Below, piece by piece: positions 40,196 to 49,388 of a stretch of DNA of 55,329 nucleotides. Below the pieces are notes generated by a model that saw only the letters and a list, made by a program, of their open reading frames with translations, had not been told where the DNA came from and did no database searches. The stretch is from assembly GCF_001642725.1 (NCBI RefSeq), contig NZ_LSUQ01000013.1:1-55329 (forward strand). Reading direction: 5' to 3'. A program made the translations under genes and the position numbers. The stretch is from Ferroacidibacillus organovorans. Its GTDB lineage: Bacteria; Bacillota; Bacilli; Alicyclobacillales; SLC66. Position 1 is the stretch's first letter; each line of letters opens with the position of its first letter.

Positions 40196-40262
40196 TCTTG
40201 TAAATTATCCCATAGAGAAGTAGAGTATGAATAGAGATCTTCTATGAGGGGAGACCGCGAAA

Positions 40263-40649
40263 GTGATGTTGGCCAACTGTGAAGTATGCAACCGTCTATT
40301 TGCACAAACTGTCAGTCCTATGTGTCCGGATTGTGCAAAAAAAGAAGAGGACGATTTTGAACGAGTATCGCATTACTTGCGAGAAAATCGACAAGCAACG
40401 ATTAATGAAATTGTTGATGCATTAGAAGTGCCAAAAGGGCTCATTCTAAAATTCTTGAGAATGGGTCGACTTGAGCAGAGGGAATCTCTTAGTTATCCTT
40501 GTGAGGGTTGTAGTACGTTAATAACAAAAGGAAACTATTGTGAAATTTGTCAAGTGAAAAAACAGTTGATCATGGATCAAGTATCCAGTGGATTAAAGCG
40601 TACAAATTCAAAATCATCGAATGGATCCTATTATAGTCGCTCTCATTAA
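40263..40649 (+). CDS. yvyF: YvyF-like flagellar operon zinc-binding protein
   Basis: LANCEVCNRLF, CPDC, FERVSHYLREN, FLRMGRL; follows comFC. Confidence 0.8.
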   Translation: MMLANCEVCNRLFAQTVSPMCPDCAKKEEDDFERVSHYLRENRQATINEIVDALEVPKGLILKFLRMGRLEQRESLSYPCEGCSTLITKGNYCEICQVKKQLIMDQVSSGLKRTNSKSSNGSYYSRSH

Positions 40650-40677
40650 TAAGGGTGAGACGAGGAAAATCCTCTTC

Positions 40678-41046
40678 TCACTCTTTCACTTGAGCCCATG
40701 TTTTGGCCCAGCTCTCCCAAAATTCAATCGCACTTGCACGCTCTTCTGATTGTTCATCAATGATGTTTGGTTGCATGTACCAATTTATGCTCAGTCGATA
40801 GAAATAGGCGTACGTTTGATCCGTTTTCTGGGCTGCTTCTAGCGTAAGATCAAGCGAAGAGCGCAAAAAGGAGATAATCTCCTGCAATTGTTCAATTTTG
40901 GCTCGTCCCTCCATCACTTGATGATTGAGCGCGTCGGTGTGAATGCCGCGAACAAGGATTGCTGCCTTTTCGTGTAGTTGAGATAATTGCACATGTAAAG
41001 GTGTGGTCATCACACTTTGCGTTTGGTAAGATGCGATACGGTTCAT
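40678..41046 (-). CDS. fliS: FliS-like flagellin chaperone, in-frame internal start
   Basis: AAGGGAG 8 nt before ATG 41046; SYQTQSVMTTP, QEIISFLRSSLD, YAYFYRL, terminal W..TWAQ match the FliS pattern. Confidence 0.7.
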   Translation of the reverse strand: MNRIASYQTQSVMTTPLHVQLSQLHEKAAILVRGIHTDALNHQVMEGRAKIEQLQEIISFLRSSLDLTLEAAQKTDQTYAYFYRLSINWYMQPNIIDEQSEERASAIEFWESWAKTWAQVKE

Positions 41047-42933
41047 AAAAAGCTCTCCCTTCTTGGTTTGGATCATTTGTCCAAGCTGTTTGCTAATATT
41101 TTGTAATAGCTGCGAATCTGGAAACAGTGTCAAGCCGTCTTCAACGTGTTTAAGCGCTTTTTCCGTTTGATTTTTTTGCAATAATAAATCACACTCCAGT
41201 GCGATTTTTGAAATGGTCACGGGTGTTTCGAGGCTTTTTACGATGAGTGCCTCGACGAGTGGAAAGTGTCCTTTTTGAAAGGAAGATAATGCATCCCATT
41301 CTAGCCATAGACTGTGTTCTTGCAAGGGACGGCAACCTTTGAAAATGTCTTTACGCGAGGTGTGTCTAAACCACCCATAAAAGTGATCGGCGTCTTCTGC
41401 GTATGGAAAAAGTAATGCAATGAGTGGGTAGGCGCGCGCGGCGATCAGATCCTTGATCACGCCGCTGAGAAGGCCGCCCTGAGAGGGCGTTCTGATCCAC
41501 GCTGCGAGGTTTCGGCCGCGACTGGTATGATCAAGTAATGAATAGCCAACTTCTTCACGGCCCTCCACCACGTGGATGATCCCGTTTATAACACGTGTCA
41601 TTTCATCATCAGAATTTGCATACGCAGATCGAAGCAGTGTGTACTTATCTTCGCAGTCCGTGAACCACATGCCTCGCTGAATCCATTCGGTTTTACCGAC
41701 GCGTGCCGCAATTCGTTCGATTACGTTTTCAGCGCCCGGCAAACGAAAGAGTGCGTACGATTCAGCGTAGATAGAGAGGCACAGCGCATCTTGAATTCTT
41801 GACTCAATATTTGTTTTGAGGAAGTCTTCATTTGCGGGCATGAGACTCAATAGATACGGAATAACGGTGTCAAAGGATGGATTTTCAAGAAAGGATTGCA
41901 AATACCATTTCTGTGCGGTGACAGGGTCACCGAGATGCATATAACACATCCCCATGTCAAAGGAACTATAAAAAGTGGACATTCCTTCCAATGTATCGAC
42001 AAAACTGAGCTTAGGTTCACCTACTCGTTTGCATTCCTTTAAGACTTGAATTGCCTTTTGGTAATTTCCCTTTCCCATATAGGCAATTGCCATTTTTCGA
42101 TAGAGTTCTGCGATATAAGGAAAGCGCGTCACGCCTTGCTCTGCGATCATGATCGCTCTATCCCAATCTTTTAATTCTGAGGCTGCTAAGGAACTGATGT
42201 TAAATAACCTCGGTAAATATAAAGGGAGCGCATCTGCAGACAAATCTTTTACCAGATCATATGTTTCTTCATAAAGTGGGAGGACATTTTTAAAATCTCC
42301 GATTCGCGCATACTCTACAATCATGTTTACAAGATGAAAGGGGTCAGACCGAGTTTGATCAAGTTGTTCTTTAAGCATGGCCATGTTTCGTTCGGGTTTC
42401 CTTTTGTGGGCAACAAATTCGCTGATATATCCAACATGGTGTATGGTGATAGGTGAGAACATAATATTATGGAACTCATGGTTTGTACCCAGATCAATTT
42501 GCTCATGAATGGAACCCGTATAGCGGTGTTTTTGCTTGAAGATTCTAACGGATTGTATAGGTGACGTTTTTGTTAATTTATTTACGCTACCCAAATAGTT
42601 GACGATTTGGACAAGGTAACCGTCAGCGGAGTTTGCTTCAAGAAAGGTGCGTATTTCAATCTGATCTTCTTCTTTAAAGTACTCGTCCGCATCAATGGTT
42701 AAAATATAGGTACCTTGAGCTGCTTCAATTGCTTTATTACGAGCGTTTGAGAAATTCCCATCCCACGTATAGTGAATGATATGTGCTTCATGATTTTTGG
42801 CGATTTCGAGTGATCGATCTGTACTTCCTGTGTCTGCAATGATGATTTCGTCTGCAATTCCTTTGAGCGAACGGAGGCATCGATCCAGGAGTAATTCTTC
42901 ATTTTTAATAATGAGGCAGGCTGTTAACAGCAT
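40678..42933 (-). CDS. GT2 glycosyltransferase with TPR repeats fused to C-terminal FliS-like chaperone domain
   Basis: CLIIKNEE, DTGSTD, FSNARN, IDADE, IHEQ, HVGY; TPR region; last 122 aa FliS-like. Confidence 0.85.
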   Translation of the reverse strand: MLLTACLIIKNEELLLDRCLRSLKGIADEIIIADTGSTDRSLEIAKNHEAHIIHYTWDGNFSNARNKAIEAAQGTYILTIDADEYFKEEDQIEIRTFLEANSADGYLVQIVNYLGSVNKLTKTSPIQSVRIFKQKHRYTGSIHEQIDLGTNHEFHNIMFSPITIHHVGYISEFVAHKRKPERNMAMLKEQLDQTRSDPFHLVNMIVEYARIGDFKNVLPLYEETYDLVKDLSADALPLYLPRLFNISSLAASELKDWDRAIMIAEQGVTRFPYIAELYRKMAIAYMGKGNYQKAIQVLKECKRVGEPKLSFVDTLEGMSTFYSSFDMGMCYMHLGDPVTAQKWYLQSFLENPSFDTVIPYLLSLMPANEDFLKTNIESRIQDALCLSIYAESYALFRLPGAENVIERIAARVGKTEWIQRGMWFTDCEDKYTLLRSAYANSDDEMTRVINGIIHVVEGREEVGYSLLDHTSRGRNLAAWIRTPSQGGLLSGVIKDLIAARAYPLIALLFPYAEDADHFYGWFRHTSRKDIFKGCRPLQEHSLWLEWDALSSFQKGHFPLVEALIVKSLETPVTISKIALECDLLLQKNQTEKALKHVEDGLTLFPDSQLLQNISKQLGQMIQTKKGELFMNRIASYQTQSVMTTPLHVQLSQLHEKAAILVRGIHTDALNHQVMEGRAKIEQLQEIISFLRSSLDLTLEAAQKTDQTYAYFYRLSINWYMQPNIIDEQSEERASAIEFWESWAKTWAQVKE

Positions 42934-42944
42934 GGTAAAACTCC

Positions 42945-43271
42945 TTATTCAAATTTCCGGCTGGACATTGATTGATTCATTTGGTATGCGCGAAGTGCAG
43001 GGCTCGCTTTTACAAATGACGAAAACTCTTGACTGTTTTGCTTAATGATTACCGAGATTCGTTCGGCAATCTCCTGCGTTTCGTCATAGAGTTTATTGAG
43101 TTGTAACTCGGAAATTGTATCACTCTGTAAAGAGAGCACCAATTTCTGTAGGATAGACGTACGTTCGTAAGCGAGATACGGTAGAGTCTCTACTCTACCG
43201 TTATCGATTGCAAGAAGTACCTCTTGATATAAAGCGTGTGCTCGCTCAACCATCTCATGCGCCGAGATCAT
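42945..43271 (-). CDS. Small helical protein, FliT-like by position and size
   Basis: 108 aa, helical, overlaps the fliD stop. Confidence 0.5.
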   Translation of the reverse strand: MISAHEMVERAHALYQEVLLAIDNGRVETLPYLAYERTSILQKLVLSLQSDTISELQLNKLYDETQEIAERISVIIKQNSQEFSSFVKASPALRAYQMNQSMSSRKFE

Positions 43272-44776
43272 GGTATAGCTGGTGCACTGCTTGAGGATGA
43301 AGCGCTAGAGCCGCCTCCGCCCATAAGTGAGGATAACAAGCTCATCTGTGACTGACTGTGCGCTAATGCGGTATTCAACGCATTGAGTTGGGCAGCGAAG
43401 TTCTGGACTTGCGCAGTAATTTGTTGATTAACTGTGGTCAAATAGTTTGAGATCGACGTTTGCTGCGCGCTGATGCTTGTCAATTCGGTTCCGATCTCAC
43501 CAGAACCAGCGATCGTTCCGTACCTGCTTAGCATCGTGGATACGTTCCCTAGAAGACCGCTTACGGGATATGCACTGGATGAGGTAATACCACTCACAAC
43601 GCCAAAGAAAGATTCAACAGCATTTTGATTTGAAGTGAGAGCTTGTGTAAACAAGGTCTGTCCGTTCTGGAGGGGTGCGCCACCAGCCTGAAACCCTGCA
43701 GAGGGTTGAAATTCGAGATGGCCTGTTGTGGGATCTGTGACAATTCCGATTTGCGCAAGCGCAGAAATTGTCCCACTCCCAACAGATTGATTGAGCGAAT
43801 TGGGCAGTTCAAAAAGTAATTGATTTGTGACCCCGTCTGAAAAAAGAGGGCCAACACTAGCTGCTGTATTACCGCTAGCAGGAGTATACGCTGTGCCACT
43901 GTGTATAAGATCGATGAGAGAGTTATAGGCGGACATCCACGATTGTACAGATTGAATCACACTGCTTGTATTCTGGGAAATTTGAACTGACGATGTCCCT
44001 CCTGACTGCAGTGCAGTGAATGTGACGTCAGGAATCGCATTGGAAAATGTATTGGTCTGCGATTGGACATTGATTGAGCCATCGATTGTGGCAGCTGCGT
44101 TTTGGGCAGTGACGGTTGCTGTTGATGCGGAGAGCTGGCTTGCACCTGTTGAAGTTGCTGAATCAGACAGTGTAAAGGAATTTGACAGACCCGTCTGTGT
44201 CGATTGAAACATCAACTCGTAAGGCGTTGAAGAACTTCCGGTATTGATTACGCTTGCTTGAACTGCGGTCGTCGCATTGTTCACGGCAGCTGCAATTGCT
44301 GAGAGACTCTCACCAGATGTTATTGAAATGGTGACTCCGCTTTGTCCACTTGGCGTGATTGAGAGACTTCCGCTTGCCAGTGTGGAACTTGCAGTGGCAG
44401 AAGACTGATGACCTGCCGTGGCTACATTGACTTGAGCCTGCGCGAGCTGTGTCACTGCGATCGTGTAGTTTGAATTAAGCGCACCCGCTGTAGCAGAAAC
44501 GGCAATGACCGCTGAATTTGAATTGGTAACATTGACAGGATTCCACGTTAATGTGCTTGCCAATGTATTACTCGCGTTTTGAAATGCGCTGAGCGCGGAC
44601 TGAAGCGATGTTAATGCGGTTTGCGTTCCGGACAGTGTGGCAAGCTCTGAAGTGGAAACACCGGTTAGTTGGGCAGTCAAAACCTTTTGCAGGTCCGTTG
44701 TATACTGCGTAACGGGAACGCCAATCCCACCTGGATTCGGAATTGTATTCAATTGTTGCAAGAGGTTGACGGACAT
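43268..44776 (-). CDS. fliD: Flagellar filament cap protein
   Basis: YTIAVTQLAQAQ, AQNAAATIDG, TNTFSNAIPDVT, AYNSLI, GPLFSD; follows flagellin. Confidence 0.85.
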   Translation of the reverse strand: MSVNLLQQLNTIPNPGGIGVPVTQYTTDLQKVLTAQLTGVSTSELATLSGTQTALTSLQSALSAFQNASNTLASTLTWNPVNVTNSNSAVIAVSATAGALNSNYTIAVTQLAQAQVNVATAGHQSSATASSTLASGSLSITPSGQSGVTISITSGESLSAIAAAVNNATTAVQASVINTGSSSTPYELMFQSTQTGLSNSFTLSDSATSTGASQLSASTATVTAQNAAATIDGSINVQSQTNTFSNAIPDVTFTALQSGGTSSVQISQNTSSVIQSVQSWMSAYNSLIDLIHSGTAYTPASGNTAASVGPLFSDGVTNQLLFELPNSLNQSVGSGTISALAQIGIVTDPTTGHLEFQPSAGFQAGGAPLQNGQTLFTQALTSNQNAVESFFGVVSGITSSSAYPVSGLLGNVSTMLSRYGTIAGSGEIGTELTSISAQQTSISNYLTTVNQQITAQVQNFAAQLNALNTALAHSQSQMSLLSSLMGGGGSSASSSSSAPAIP

Positions 44777-44803
44777 ACGCTCATCTCCTTAAGGTCTTAG
44801 GGA

Positions 44804-44829
44804 GGACTCGGGCGGTGAAGCCCGAGTCC
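44804..44829 (-). other. GC-rich hairpin without U-tail between flagellin and fliD
   Basis: GGACTCGGGC-6nt-GCCCGAGTCC perfect 10-bp stem. Confidence 0.6.
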
Positions 44830-44845
44830 ATCGTGTCTGCGAAGA

Positions 44846-45685
44846 TTAGCTAAGTAATTTGAGGATTGCTGCAGGCTGTTGTTGCGCCTGGCCAAGCATC
44901 GAAAGACCAACTTGCTGAAGAACTTGGTTCTGGCTGAACTGCGTATAGGCGGCCGCCATGTTCGTGTTCGTGATAACGGACTGCGCGTTTGAAAGGTTTT
45001 GCGATTCATTCTGAAGGCCGGTAATGCGATAGTTCAACTGATCCTGAACAGAGCCTAGGCTCGCTTGGTTGCTCGACAATAGGGAAATTGCCGATTGGAT
45101 TGCGGAAATTGCAGAAAGCGCAGCCGATTGGGATGTAATGTTGACAGATGCTGCAGATACGCCGAGTGAAGCTGACGTGATGTTATAAAGACTGAATGCG
45201 AGTTGGGACAGGCTAGATGAGTCAAACCCGACTTGCAATGTGACGACTGCGGAACTGGATCCATTGAGCAGGTGAATGGTGTTGAATTGTGTGCTGTTTG
45301 CCGTATTATCTACCTGAGAGACAAGGGCGTTCATCTCAGACTGCAGGTTGTTTAGATCCGCCGTATTCTGTGTTCCGTTGGCCGCTTCGACAGCAAGGCT
45401 GTTCATGGTTTGCAGAATGCCTTCGACCTGGTTCATCGAGCCTGTCGCAGTCTGAATCAAACTAACGCCTTGTTGAGCGTTTTGCACAGCTGTGTTGAGT
45501 CCGTTGACCTGGGAGGTCATCTGCTGGGAGATCGCATATCCAGCAGGATTGTCAGCAGCCGAGTTGATGCTGTTGCCAGATGATAATTGGGTGTAGGACG
45601 TGTTGATGTTGTTTTGAACGTAGTTCAAGTTGGACAAAATATTGGATGCTGCCGAGTTGTTGTTTACACTGAAATTGACTGACAT
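44846..45685 (-). CDS. fliC: Flagellin
   Basis: LSSG.SINSAADNPAG, QFN...LLNG, LQVG, LGSVQ, VLQQ...MLGQAQQQP..ILKLL. Confidence 0.92.
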   Translation of the reverse strand: MSVNFSVNNNSAASNILSNLNYVQNNINTSYTQLSSGNSINSAADNPAGYAISQQMTSQVNGLNTAVQNAQQGVSLIQTATGSMNQVEGILQTMNSLAVEAANGTQNTADLNNLQSEMNALVSQVDNTANSTQFNTIHLLNGSSSAVVTLQVGFDSSSLSQLAFSLYNITSASLGVSAASVNITSQSAALSAISAIQSAISLLSSNQASLGSVQDQLNYRITGLQNESQNLSNAQSVITNTNMAAAYTQFSQNQVLQQVGLSMLGQAQQQPAAILKLLS

Positions 45686-45724
45686 CTAGACACACCTTCC
45701 TGTATAATAGAATGGGGTAAAAAA

Positions 45725-46636
45725 TTAACCGTTTGGCAAATAGGTGACGAGAGATGGCAACAGGATGCTTGCGCCCATCTTCAACGCAGCCTGATAGACG
45801 GTCTGGTCTGTGTTGAATTGAGTAATGACTTGCGCCATGTTCGCGTCTTGGATCACCCCCTTATCCGTACTCAGTGTTTGTGCGTACGTTGATAACTGGT
45901 TTTGTAAAGCGGTCAATCGATCCTGCCTGGCACCTACAGAAGCATTAAGGTCGGAGACCTGGCTGATGTTTGCCTGCAGGTTTGAAAGATCGCTTTGCAG
46001 AGCTGCGTTTGTTCCTGACGCGAGGTCGCTCGCGATGTTTGAAAGTGTCGTCTGTAAGTCTTGCGTTGCCCCGCTTGGCGTCGATTGCATAATCGAAGTT
46101 GCCGTCACATTGATAGATACCTGGATGCCGTTTGCGACCGTGTATTGAATCGATCCTGACGCACCACTTGGTGAGGTTCCTGTCGATAATGCATAACTCG
46201 AAGGTTGGACCTGATCAGCAAAGCCCCCGAAGAGATAGCGATTCTCTACTTTCGTATTGAGCAATTGACCGAGATTGCTCACGTCACTTTGTGCGACGTT
46301 GGCAAGCGCCTGACGGGCAGAGGAACTCGCTGTTGGCGCGTTTAAACCTTCTAGTACAGTAGACTGCAGTGATTGCAGTGTGGTCATCATCGTTTGAAGT
46401 GTGTTACTCGAATTGCTGAGCCACATTTGACCTGCTGCAATCGTTCCTGAATAGGCTGTCGTCTCTGAAAGCGATGCGCGAATGGCCATATCTTGAGAAA
46501 CGGCTAAAGGATTGTCGGAAGGCTGATTTAACGTTTTGCCTGTTGAAAGCTCGAGTTGTAGTGTCTGCATGTTTGCGTTTGCTTGCGTTAAGTTGTATAA
46601 AAATTGGCTTTGCATCATGGACTCTGTGACTCGCAT
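45725..46636 (-). CDS. flgL: Flagellar hook-filament junction protein FlgL
   Basis: MRVT, LSTGK..NQPSDNP, RYLFGG, YQAALK...LPSLVTYL. Confidence 0.9.
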   Translation of the reverse strand: MRVTESMMQSQFLYNLTQANANMQTLQLELSTGKTLNQPSDNPLAVSQDMAIRASLSETTAYSGTIAAGQMWLSNSSNTLQTMMTTLQSLQSTVLEGLNAPTASSSARQALANVAQSDVSNLGQLLNTKVENRYLFGGFADQVQPSSYALSTGTSPSGASGSIQYTVANGIQVSINVTATSIMQSTPSGATQDLQTTLSNIASDLASGTNAALQSDLSNLQANISQVSDLNASVGARQDRLTALQNQLSTYAQTLSTDKGVIQDANMAQVITQFNTDQTVYQAALKMGASILLPSLVTYLPNG

Positions 46637-48833: not shown

Positions 48834-49388
48834 TTATCGCGATACATCCAATTTTTTTTTGAGTTTTTCTATGGTTTTTTGATAACGACGCGTAATGGTT
48901 GAGACAGCCACATCCAAAACGTAAGCAATTTCTGTGAAATTGTATCCATCCTTGATGTGCAAAGATAAAAGGAGTTGTTCATCATGACTCAATTCTTTTA
49001 ACGCATTCATAACGTCCATCCACAGTTCCTGATCAATGTTTCCGTCATCTGATGTAATATCAAGCGCGTGATCAATCGAGATCGTATTTGGCATTTGATA
49101 AGCCTGTAGTTTTTGTTGATAGGAGCGTGTGACTTTTACTGGATACGAATTGCGCACAGCGTCGCGCATAGCAAATTTGACTTGTTGGCGGAAGATGATA
49201 GCCAGCGCGTCAAAATCCCATGGACTACCTTCTTGATTTAGCCTCACACAAAACTGCCACCAACGATTTTTTGCGACCGCTATAAGGTCGTCCGCGTCAA
49301 TGATGCTACTCTTGCGAAGCTGAGTGTAGCGGTACGATAAACGTCGTATATAGGCGGTTTGTTCATCAGTTAATGAAAATAGATCCAT
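48834..49388 (-). CDS. Short sigma-70 family factor, FliA/SigD-like
   Basis: DDL, AMRDAVR, VTRS, region-4 HTH (LSL...GYNFTEIAYVLDVAVSTITR); 184 aa. Confidence 0.7.
   Translation of the reverse strand: MDLFSLTDEQTAYIRRLSYRYTQLRKSSIIDADDLIAVAKNRWWQFCVRLNQEGSPWDFDALAIIFRQQVKFAMRDAVRNSYPVKVTRSYQQKLQAYQMPNTISIDHALDITSDDGNIDQELWMDVMNALKELSHDEQLLLSLHIKDGYNFTEIAYVLDVAVSTITRRYQKTIEKLKKKLDVSR

Follow-up and report, generated by a model that had tools for sequence, protein, structure and literature searches.

How flagellin glycosyltransferases find their substrate, and in which order flagellin is modified, bound by its chaperone and exported, is unsettled. A gene of Ferroacidibacillus organovorans raises both questions within one reading frame. 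It lies on a 55,329-nucleotide stretch of DNA (contig NZ_LSUQ01000013.1, positions 1 to 55,329; hereafter the window) and encodes a 751-residue protein, P0001, that runs from a family 2 glycosyltransferase (GT2) domain through tetratricopeptide repeats (TPRs) into a domain of the flagellin chaperone FliS. A Shine-Dalgarno (SD) sequence and an in-frame start codon stand exactly at the first residue of the FliS domain. Is the chaperone a part of the enzyme, a product in its own right, or both? The answer that we favor, with moderate confidence, is that P0001 is a flagellin glycosyltransferase composed of a GT2 domain, a TPR-like scaffold and the tethered sole FliS of the organism, which would hold the substrate, and that free FliS is probably also made from the same gene by internal initiation.

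One reading frame from glycosyltransferase to FliS

The first-pass annotation of the locus described a single open frame leading from GT2 through TPRs into a 122-aa FliS-like domain, and the list of open reading frames (ORFs), the translation and the Pfam matches agree (Table 1). Pfam assigns GT2 (PF00535) to residues 6-140 (84.5 bits, cut-off 23.3), TPR_2 to residues 275-301 (40.8 bits) and FliS (PF02561) to residues 634-749 (28.0 bits, cut-off 26.7). In the AlphaFold2 (AF2) model, which is built on 22 fused homologues (mean predicted local distance difference test score (pLDDT) 85.8, predicted template-modelling score 0.76), a GT-A domain is followed by a wholly helical stretch at residues 198-626. 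The sole long low-confidence stretch, residues 625-643, spans the junction with the FliS domain. Translation of the whole frame starts from an AAGGAG, a 7-nt spacer and an ATG at 42933-42931; this SD overlaps the TAA stop of the 108-aa gene upstream.

Contigs from four metagenome runs of three other studies cover the fusion junction, and two of them span positions 40600-43000. Compared with the fusion gene they have 0 indels and 11, 6, 3 and 3 substitutions. When the substitutions are applied, no new stop appears, and the internal SD and ATG are identical in all four runs, one of which carries a single change 5 nt upstream of that SD. The uninterrupted fusion frame in F. organovorans is real.

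Table 1 Coordinates of the GT2-TPR-FliS gene, its parts and its neighbors in the window
Feature	Position	Strand	Basis
GT2-TPR-FliS fusion gene (P0001), 751 aa + TGA stop	40678..42933	-	ORF list, translation, Pfam, AF2 model
Main-start SD AAGGAG	42941..42946	-	Read from sequence
GT2 (GT-A) catalytic domain, residues ~1-195	42349..42933	-	PF00535, Foldseek, DxD
All-helical TPR-like region, residues ~198-626	41056..42342	-	TPR_2, AF2 model, Foldseek
Internal SD AAGGGAG	41055..41061	-	Read from sequence, duplex energy
In-frame internal ATG (Met630), first FliS-domain residue	41044..41046	-	Sequence, alignment of fused genes
FliS domain, residues 630-751, 122 aa	40681..41046	-	PF02561, profile vs solved FliS, AF2 model
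108-aa helical protein P0002, between fliD and the fusion gene	42945..43271	-	ORF, homologues at same position
fliD (filament cap), 502 aa	43268..44776	-	FliD_N, FliD_C, NF005955
Flagellin, 279 aa, presumed substrate	44846..45685	-	Flagellin_N + Flagellin_C

The FliS domain and its copy number

The C-terminal domain matches FliS profiles, as the first reading of the locus had supposed. Taken alone, the 122-aa part scores 34.0 bits against PF02561, above the cut-off given above. In addition, a profile of 21 glycosyltransferase-linked FliS domains matches solved FliS structures from Bacillus subtilis (5maw_E, 1.5e-8) and Aquifex (1orj_A, 2e-8), as well as 1vh6_A (2.1e-8) and 4iwb_A (8.5e-8), and is aligned with them end to end over profile positions 2-118. 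In the AF2 model of the whole protein, the domain is predicted to fold into a short N-terminal helix (632-639) and four long helices (646-669, 673-692, 699-720 and 729-748), with block pLDDT values of 79-92.

A six-frame search of the whole genome with PF02561 (3,034,429 bases, 98 contigs, 96.8% complete; E<=10) gives one match, the fusion gene itself, at 33.2 bits. The first-pass annotation saw no other fliS in the flagellar block, and this statement now holds genome-wide. By this profile search, the FliS domain of the fusion is the sole FliS-family protein of the genome, and its gene lies with fliD and flagellin in the late flagellar block.

Fused, split and canonical forms in relatives

We searched the 751-aa protein against 41 genomes, comprising the source genome and 40 relatives from two families of one order. 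The uninterrupted full-length fusion is present in 19 of them (the source and 18 relatives, at 31-37% identity), and one further genome (G006) has a full-length match with one in-frame TGA. In seven genomes the GT2-TPR part and FliS are adjacent separate frames (G038, G012, G003, G016, G004, G001 and G013, the last at a contig end); overall, the glycosyltransferase and FliS are separate neighboring genes in 8 of the 41. A match to the FliS part is absent from 14 genomes. Ten of these carry a canonical FliS of 109-130 bits, and the other four (completeness 99, 83, 65 and 60%) give no PF02561 match. The glycosyltransferase-linked FliS, fused or split, scores 20-55 bits as against 109-130 bits for the canonical form; the G001 copy was found by protein search and not by the hidden Markov model. 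Above the cut-off, no genome among the 41 has both a linked and a canonical FliS, and the 27 genomes with the linked module have no other FliS.

In the split relatives, the FliS gene overlaps the glycosyltransferase stop by 4 nt or starts within ~30 nt of it. The overlap (ATGA, GTGA or TTGA) occurs in G038, G012, G003, G016 and G004 with an SD just before it, which is, to judge from the sequence, the classic layout of translational coupling. Alicyclobacillus fastidiosus DSM 17978 (L029) has the same arrangement, with a 645-aa glycosyltransferase, a 120-aa FliS and a GTGA overlap. What separates these overlap-type split forms (five genomes of one clade and A. fastidiosus) from the fusion is a change of frame. 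At the other junctions a stop intervenes: in G006 an in-frame TGA is followed by an SD and an ATG, and in G001, which belongs to the genus of the source, a TAG is immediately followed by an ATG. Read from these junctions, split and fused forms differ by a frame change or a stop, and the SD and start codon are common to both.

In a maximum-likelihood tree of the GT2-TPR part (24 rows, excluding one L024 ORF, L026 and L028 by an N-terminal motif filter and the fragmentary G001 and G013), the six split rows of the overlap type group together in a single clade (support 100/99). Fused rows fill all other deep branches, and the terminal branches measure 0.3-2 changes per site. As far as the aligned genes tell, the fused state and the start signal have persisted over long divergence, whichever form came first. 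The linker from the invariant S607 to the junction has nine lengths among 18 fused genes (21-34 residues), all of them in frame. This variation in length with the frame kept argues for selection on the fused frame too.

The architecture is already present in databases. In a library of 1.84 billion representatives, the 21-domain FliS profile finds 18 clusters at E<=1e-20, of which ten are fused (749-773 aa), one is a fragment (374 aa) and seven are free (110-121 aa); below these clusters, scores fall to those of ordinary FliS. A search for longer proteins gives 25 matches at E<=1e-10, comprising 23 of 740-778 aa and two short-contig fragments. The named sources are Alicyclobacillus tengchongensis, A. 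sacchari, A. hesperidum, A. sp. SP_1, A. mali and Alicyclobacillaceae bacterium I2511. The fused proteins are named 'glycosyltransferase family 2' or 'hypothetical', and one JGI record is named 'glycosyltransferase.../flagellin-specific chaperone FliS'. With public names of only the first two kinds, annotations would report these organisms as lacking fliS.

A recent stop-codon loss had been offered as the alternative to a genuine fusion. We reject it, because the fusion spans two families at the identities given above and its linker varies in length within the frame; the metagenome contigs, moreover, carry 0 indels. More broadly, the fusion might be ascribed to such a loss, to a frameshift error or to an assembly artefact in the source genome, which is a draft in 98 contigs. 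The same frame is found without indels in four independent metagenome assemblies, and the fusion recurs in 18 other genomes and in the 23 database proteins of 740-778 aa, which leaves this explanation a negligible chance.

Two arrangements among the relatives stand apart. In one genus (L023 of G016, L024 of G004 and L021 of G012), a free FliS gene lies between two tandem ~640-aa GT2-TPR paralogues, an order that suggests that one chaperone may serve two enzymes. In G001 (L025), the taxonomically nearest relative, one frame matches query residues 2-156 of the glycosyltransferase part and a second one residues 155-621; a free FliS is encoded, and the long flagellin contains an internal TGA. The locus is so different that the cassette in the source genome may have been replaced or acquired.

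A start signal at the fusion point

The first-pass annotation noticed an AAGGGAG 8 nt before an in-frame ATG at 41046, and the sequence bears this out: the SD (41061-41055) is separated by the spacer AGCTTTTT from the ATG at 41046-41044. SD strength was scored as the energy of the duplex with a generic anti-SD, with a threshold of -8 kcal/mol. The internal SD of the fusion gene scores -13.1 kcal/mol, and none of the 38 other in-frame ATG, GTG or TTG codons of the gene has an SD of -8 kcal/mol or lower upstream. The internal start thus exceeds the expectation from chance.

The signal is conserved. In the junction alignment of 18 fused genes (loci L002-L014 and L016-L020), the codon aligned to Met630 is ATG in 15, GTG in two and TTG in one, and it is GTG in the 19th fused gene (G024, L028), so that all 19 have a start codon here (ATG 15, GTG 3, TTG 1). 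A GGAGG-like stretch precedes the junction codon in each fused gene, and in 17 of the 18 scored genes the SD reaches the threshold. Elsewhere in these genes, an in-frame start with such an SD occurs at 25 of 13,472 codons (0.19%), or at 25 of 941 in-frame start codons. Where the junction codon has changed, which it did at least three times (GTG, GTG and TTG), the outcome was always another start codon, although GTG and TTG are only two of the nine single-base neighbors of ATG. The residues encoded by the SD vary among the genes (GEL, EDF, EDP, GDE, GDD, EEL, EMV, GGV, GGS, DDE, EGT and EEG), which argues that the nucleotide pattern is kept rather than a peptide motif. When the seven codons preceding the junction are resampled synonymously, the observed SD beats the shuffle mean in 17 of 18 fused genes. 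In the split relatives, the same SD and start codon serve free FliS.

A scan for sigma-70-type promoters over 40200-46000 gives 10 sites as against 8.0 expected, with no credible internal promoter. The main and internal starts share a layout, namely AAGGAG or AAGGGAG, a T-rich spacer of 7-8 nt and ATG.

The enzyme and its presumed substrate

The DxD motif of GT-A enzymes, whose role is established, lies in the N-terminal domain within IDADE (residues 80-84). D81, D83 and E84 are invariant among the 22 fused homologues, and this conservation is compatible with an active GT-A enzyme. In Foldseek searches of the AF2 model against the PDB, the matches include the glycocin S-glycosyltransferases SunS and ThuS (2e-12), Listeria GmaR (7x9r, E 8e-7, template-modelling score 0.53 on the target), TarS, the TPR domain of OGT and designed TPR proteins. 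Pfam and Foldseek thus both place a GT2 plus TPR architecture of the GmaR type in the fusion protein; the Pfam matches of the enzyme part are to GT2 and TPR only, with no Maf family among them.

The part past residue ~370 is confined to the FliS-associated enzymes, and shorter paralogues match residues 3 to ~370 only. One such GT2-TPR paralogue, at G000:C2:75273-76235, is a 368-aa frame with 27% identity over residues 3-337, without the C-terminal helical extension and without FliS.

The flagellin gene of the window encodes a protein with a Ser/Thr-rich central stretch. Close to the fusion gene, at a distance of a few kb, all 18 fused relatives have a flagellin of ~279-285 residues that is 61-69% identical to the flagellin of the window; the flagellin frames of the split-form genomes are 431-465 aa long, and those of the canonical-FliS genomes are different again. 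A short flagellin thus accompanies the fused state, and across two families it is far more conserved (61-69%) than the enzyme (31-37%). Since few independent events are involved, this link may reflect shared descent.

Does the enzyme act on flagellin at all? It might instead glycosylate peptides in the manner of SunS or serve as a regulator in the manner of GmaR, with the fusion to FliS incidental. SunS and ThuS are indeed the best structural matches, the SunS-family model TIGR04195 scores 71.4 bits over the N-terminal half, and GmaR is reported to be an anti-repressor as well (PMC9638930). The TIGR04195 score is far below the cut-off of 350, so the fusion protein is not a member of the SunS family. 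In addition, the gene lies within the late flagellar block, is accompanied in all 18 fused relatives by fliD, the 108-aa gene and the conserved short flagellin, and has a flagellin-specific chaperone joined to it. An acceptor other than flagellin is therefore very improbable.

A proposed mechanism

FliS binds the C-terminal D0 helix of flagellin. By analogy with free FliS, the FliS domain of the fusion would hold the C-terminal helix of unexported flagellin, and the held flagellin would offer its Ser/Thr-rich middle to the GT2 active site, so that the chaperone would act as the acceptor-binding module. This part of the proposal draws on knowledge of the families and on two precedents, the flagellin-binding TPR domains in FlmG and Maf-1 and the pairing of GlfM with Maf-2. 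A prediction of the complex of flagellin and the FliS domain speaks neither for nor against it, since the median score is 0.63 and a control with an unrelated protein reaches 0.75. The sugar donor would be a common UDP-sugar, because no dedicated sugar-synthesis genes are nearby. Ribosomes would also start at the internal ATG, and the same mRNA would yield free FliS of ~14 kDa together with the ~85-kDa fusion, both sizes being estimates from chain length. We infer the second product from the conserved internal SD and start codon. The free FliS would serve bulk flagellin export and might be needed in excess of the enzyme when thousands of flagellins are exported.

A more specific version, which we put forward tentatively, is a device with two outputs, in which the internal start gives free FliS, the upstream start gives FliS welded to the glycosyltransferase, and the ratio of the two starts sets how much flagellin is modified. 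Flagellin would be glycosylated while held export-competent by the welded FliS and would then be passed to the export gate. This version would include evolutionary toggling with the coupled two-gene form, through a frame change (five genomes of one clade) or a stop (G006 and G001).

Several observations weigh against the proposed GT2-TPR-FliS mechanism. At 28-34 bits the PF02561 match is weak, and the 122-aa domain has no match among the NCBIfam models at E<=0.01. The top structural relatives, SunS and ThuS, act on small peptides and not on flagellin. The tree of the GT2-TPR part is rooted at its midpoint only, so that change may have run from fused to split or from split to fused. At the junction, the SD of one fused gene (L011) reaches just -6.6 kcal/mol, and for the synonymous shuffles the per-gene fraction has a median of 0.14 and extremes of 0.006 and 0.69; relatedness among the genomes makes the combined p (2e-6) an overstatement. 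The SD signal thus comes partly from the Gly/Glu/Asp-rich linker and partly from codon choice. A look-up of sequencing runs containing the locus lists no RNA run. Finally, in Aeromonas caviae, glycosylation by Maf1 is reported to precede chaperone binding and not to need the chaperone (PMC4065374). A chaperone-dependent route would accordingly not be general, and the glycosyltransferase-FliS module would be a different solution.

Some of these points can be read as signs that only the 85-kDa fusion is made, serving as both enzyme and export chaperone, and that the internal SD and start are an inherited remnant or act, for example, in ribosome pausing at the domain boundary. The linker composition accounts for part of the SD-like sequence, and the split forms are evidence that a separate gene has used, or still uses, the SD and start. 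A remnant should decay, yet all 19 fused genes have retained a start codon at the junction over branches that measure 0.3-2 changes per site, the three or more changes of that codon all led to start codons, and a comparable SD with an in-frame start is as rare elsewhere as stated above. We consider a fusion-only gene unlikely on this account, and retain internal initiation as part of the favored mechanism.

If this mechanism is true, glycosylation and type III export are physically coupled through the chaperone itself. In a clade that includes named Alicyclobacillus species, the sole chaperone is fused to the enzyme in most lineages and is a translationally coupled neighbor of it in the rest. 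The fused and split versions provide a natural and genetically simple system for chaperone-mediated substrate delivery.

The flagellar neighborhood and the 108-aa protein

On the minus strand, the gene order is a small sigma-like gene, flgM, a 105-aa ORF, flgK, flgL, flagellin, fliD, the 108-aa gene and the fusion gene. From the other side, a gene of the YvyF family converges on the fusion gene, with ComFC-like and DegV genes behind it; past the flagellar block come hpf, secA and prfB. The locus resembles the late flagellar region of B. subtilis, with the glycosyltransferase-FliS gene in place of fliS. FlhA is present elsewhere in the genome, and FliW (PF02623) has no match at E<=0.01 in the whole genome (96.8% complete). 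The flagellin gene directly follows flgL (44846-46636) with no fliW-csrA pair between them, the position at which B. subtilis has that pair.

A helical protein of ~100-120 aa is encoded between fliD and the glycosyltransferase gene, upstream of the latter, in 16 of 20 loci scanned; L017, L019 and L020 have other or doubtful ORFs there and are excluded from the alignment. The family, represented by P0002, is fast-evolving and ends in an R-[RK]-A-Y-like motif. P0002 is modelled as a three-helix bundle (pLDDT 89.5). It matches no Pfam family at E<=10; two of 16 homologues match FliT (E 0.066), and in the Atlas the closest clusters carry the name FliT (score 0.90). Foldseek gives a best E of 0.79, with FliT 3a7m_B at E 2.6, VIA-align gives generic helical bundles only (Z <=10), and PF05400 scores only 12.9 bits elsewhere in the genome. 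P0002 is a candidate FliT-like protein, perhaps the chaperone of FliD, perhaps a third component of the glycosylation module. It is not a FliS, to judge from an hhalign probability of 1.2% against the FliS domains.

The presence of this protein bears on a further possibility, namely that the C-terminal domain of the fusion is a specificity adaptor only, like GlfM, and that export proceeds without a classical FliS or through the 108-aa neighbor. GlfM is described as FliS/FliT-like and bridges Maf-2 to flagellin. The domain here is likewise always linked to a glycosyltransferase gene and belongs to a divergent FliS subfamily, to judge from its scores beside those of the canonical FliS of sister genera, and a conserved helical protein adjoins the fusion gene. 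Nevertheless, the domain is above the Pfam cut-off for FliS and aligns end to end with solved FliS, no other FliS is found in any of the 27 module-bearing genomes, and the 108-aa protein is unrelated to FliS, with FliT as its nearest named clusters. A pure adaptor is quite improbable, and a FliS domain that also retains the chaperone function remains our preferred assignment.

Just upstream of flgM, a 184-aa protein of the sigma-70 family (48834-49388, minus strand) matches FliA/WhiG models over region 4 only, with scores far short of the cut-offs; a short flagellar sigma factor is one possible identity. A SigD-like pattern (TAAA-N14-17-CCGATA) has 0 matches in the window.

Comparison with known systems

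A flagellin glycosyltransferase with a dedicated flagellin-binding partner is an already known kind of system. Two features are unreported in the literature searched, namely a GT2 enzyme that carries the sole FliS of the genome, and the conservation of a start signal where the two are joined; in these searches, which covered journals other than subscription journals, a GT2-TPR-FliS fusion was nowhere described.

Among known systems, the closest is the tripartite sialylation of flagellin by GlfM and Maf-2 (Unay, Kint and Viollier). According to the preprint, Maf-2 depends there on GlfM, a four-helix adaptor resembling FliS and FliT, whose gene lies immediately downstream of that of Maf-2 and which links the enzyme to flagellin (10.1101/2023.12.03.569772). 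In both systems a small four-helix partner gene lies directly downstream of the enzyme gene, and the split relatives described here have exactly this gene order. Its authors also speculate on a single-polypeptide form. Four differences stand out against the system as portrayed there. The enzyme here is a GT2 (GT-A) plus TPR protein and not a Maf; the partner is above the Pfam cut-off for FliS; it is the sole FliS of the genome and not an extra adaptor beside a normal chaperone; and it is covalently fused in most lineages, with a conserved internal start.

FlmG and Maf-1, as presented in the same preprint, combine a catalytic domain and a flagellin-binding helical-repeat (TPR) domain in one polypeptide, as the fusion protein does (10.1101/2023.12.03.569772). 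They differ in that they have no FliS domain and transfer nonulosonic acids, whereas here FliS follows the helical region. GmaR of Listeria monocytogenes O-GlcNAcylates flagellin. It shares with the fusion protein the GT2 and TPR parts and a flagellar context in Bacillota, but has no FliS domain; its reported second role is as an anti-repressor of MogR (PMC9638930).

Canonical free FliS (5maw, 1orj) resembles the domain described here in family, length, end-to-end alignment and location beside fliD. In contrast, the present domain is divergent (28-34 bits) and is the C-terminal part of a 751-aa enzyme. In B. subtilis, FliW is a partner of the FliS-flagellin complex, but FliW was not found in this genome.

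In-frame internal initiation yields long and short isoforms in CheA (CheA-L and CheA-S) and in the forms of IF2. As in these cases, a second in-frame SD and start codon here would give a full-length product and a C-terminal product. Unlike in these cases, the short product would be a complete and independently functional chaperone, and over evolution the single frame has alternated with a pair of separate, overlapping genes. As an example of a conserved in-frame internal start, the GT2-TPR-FliS gene is a clean one.

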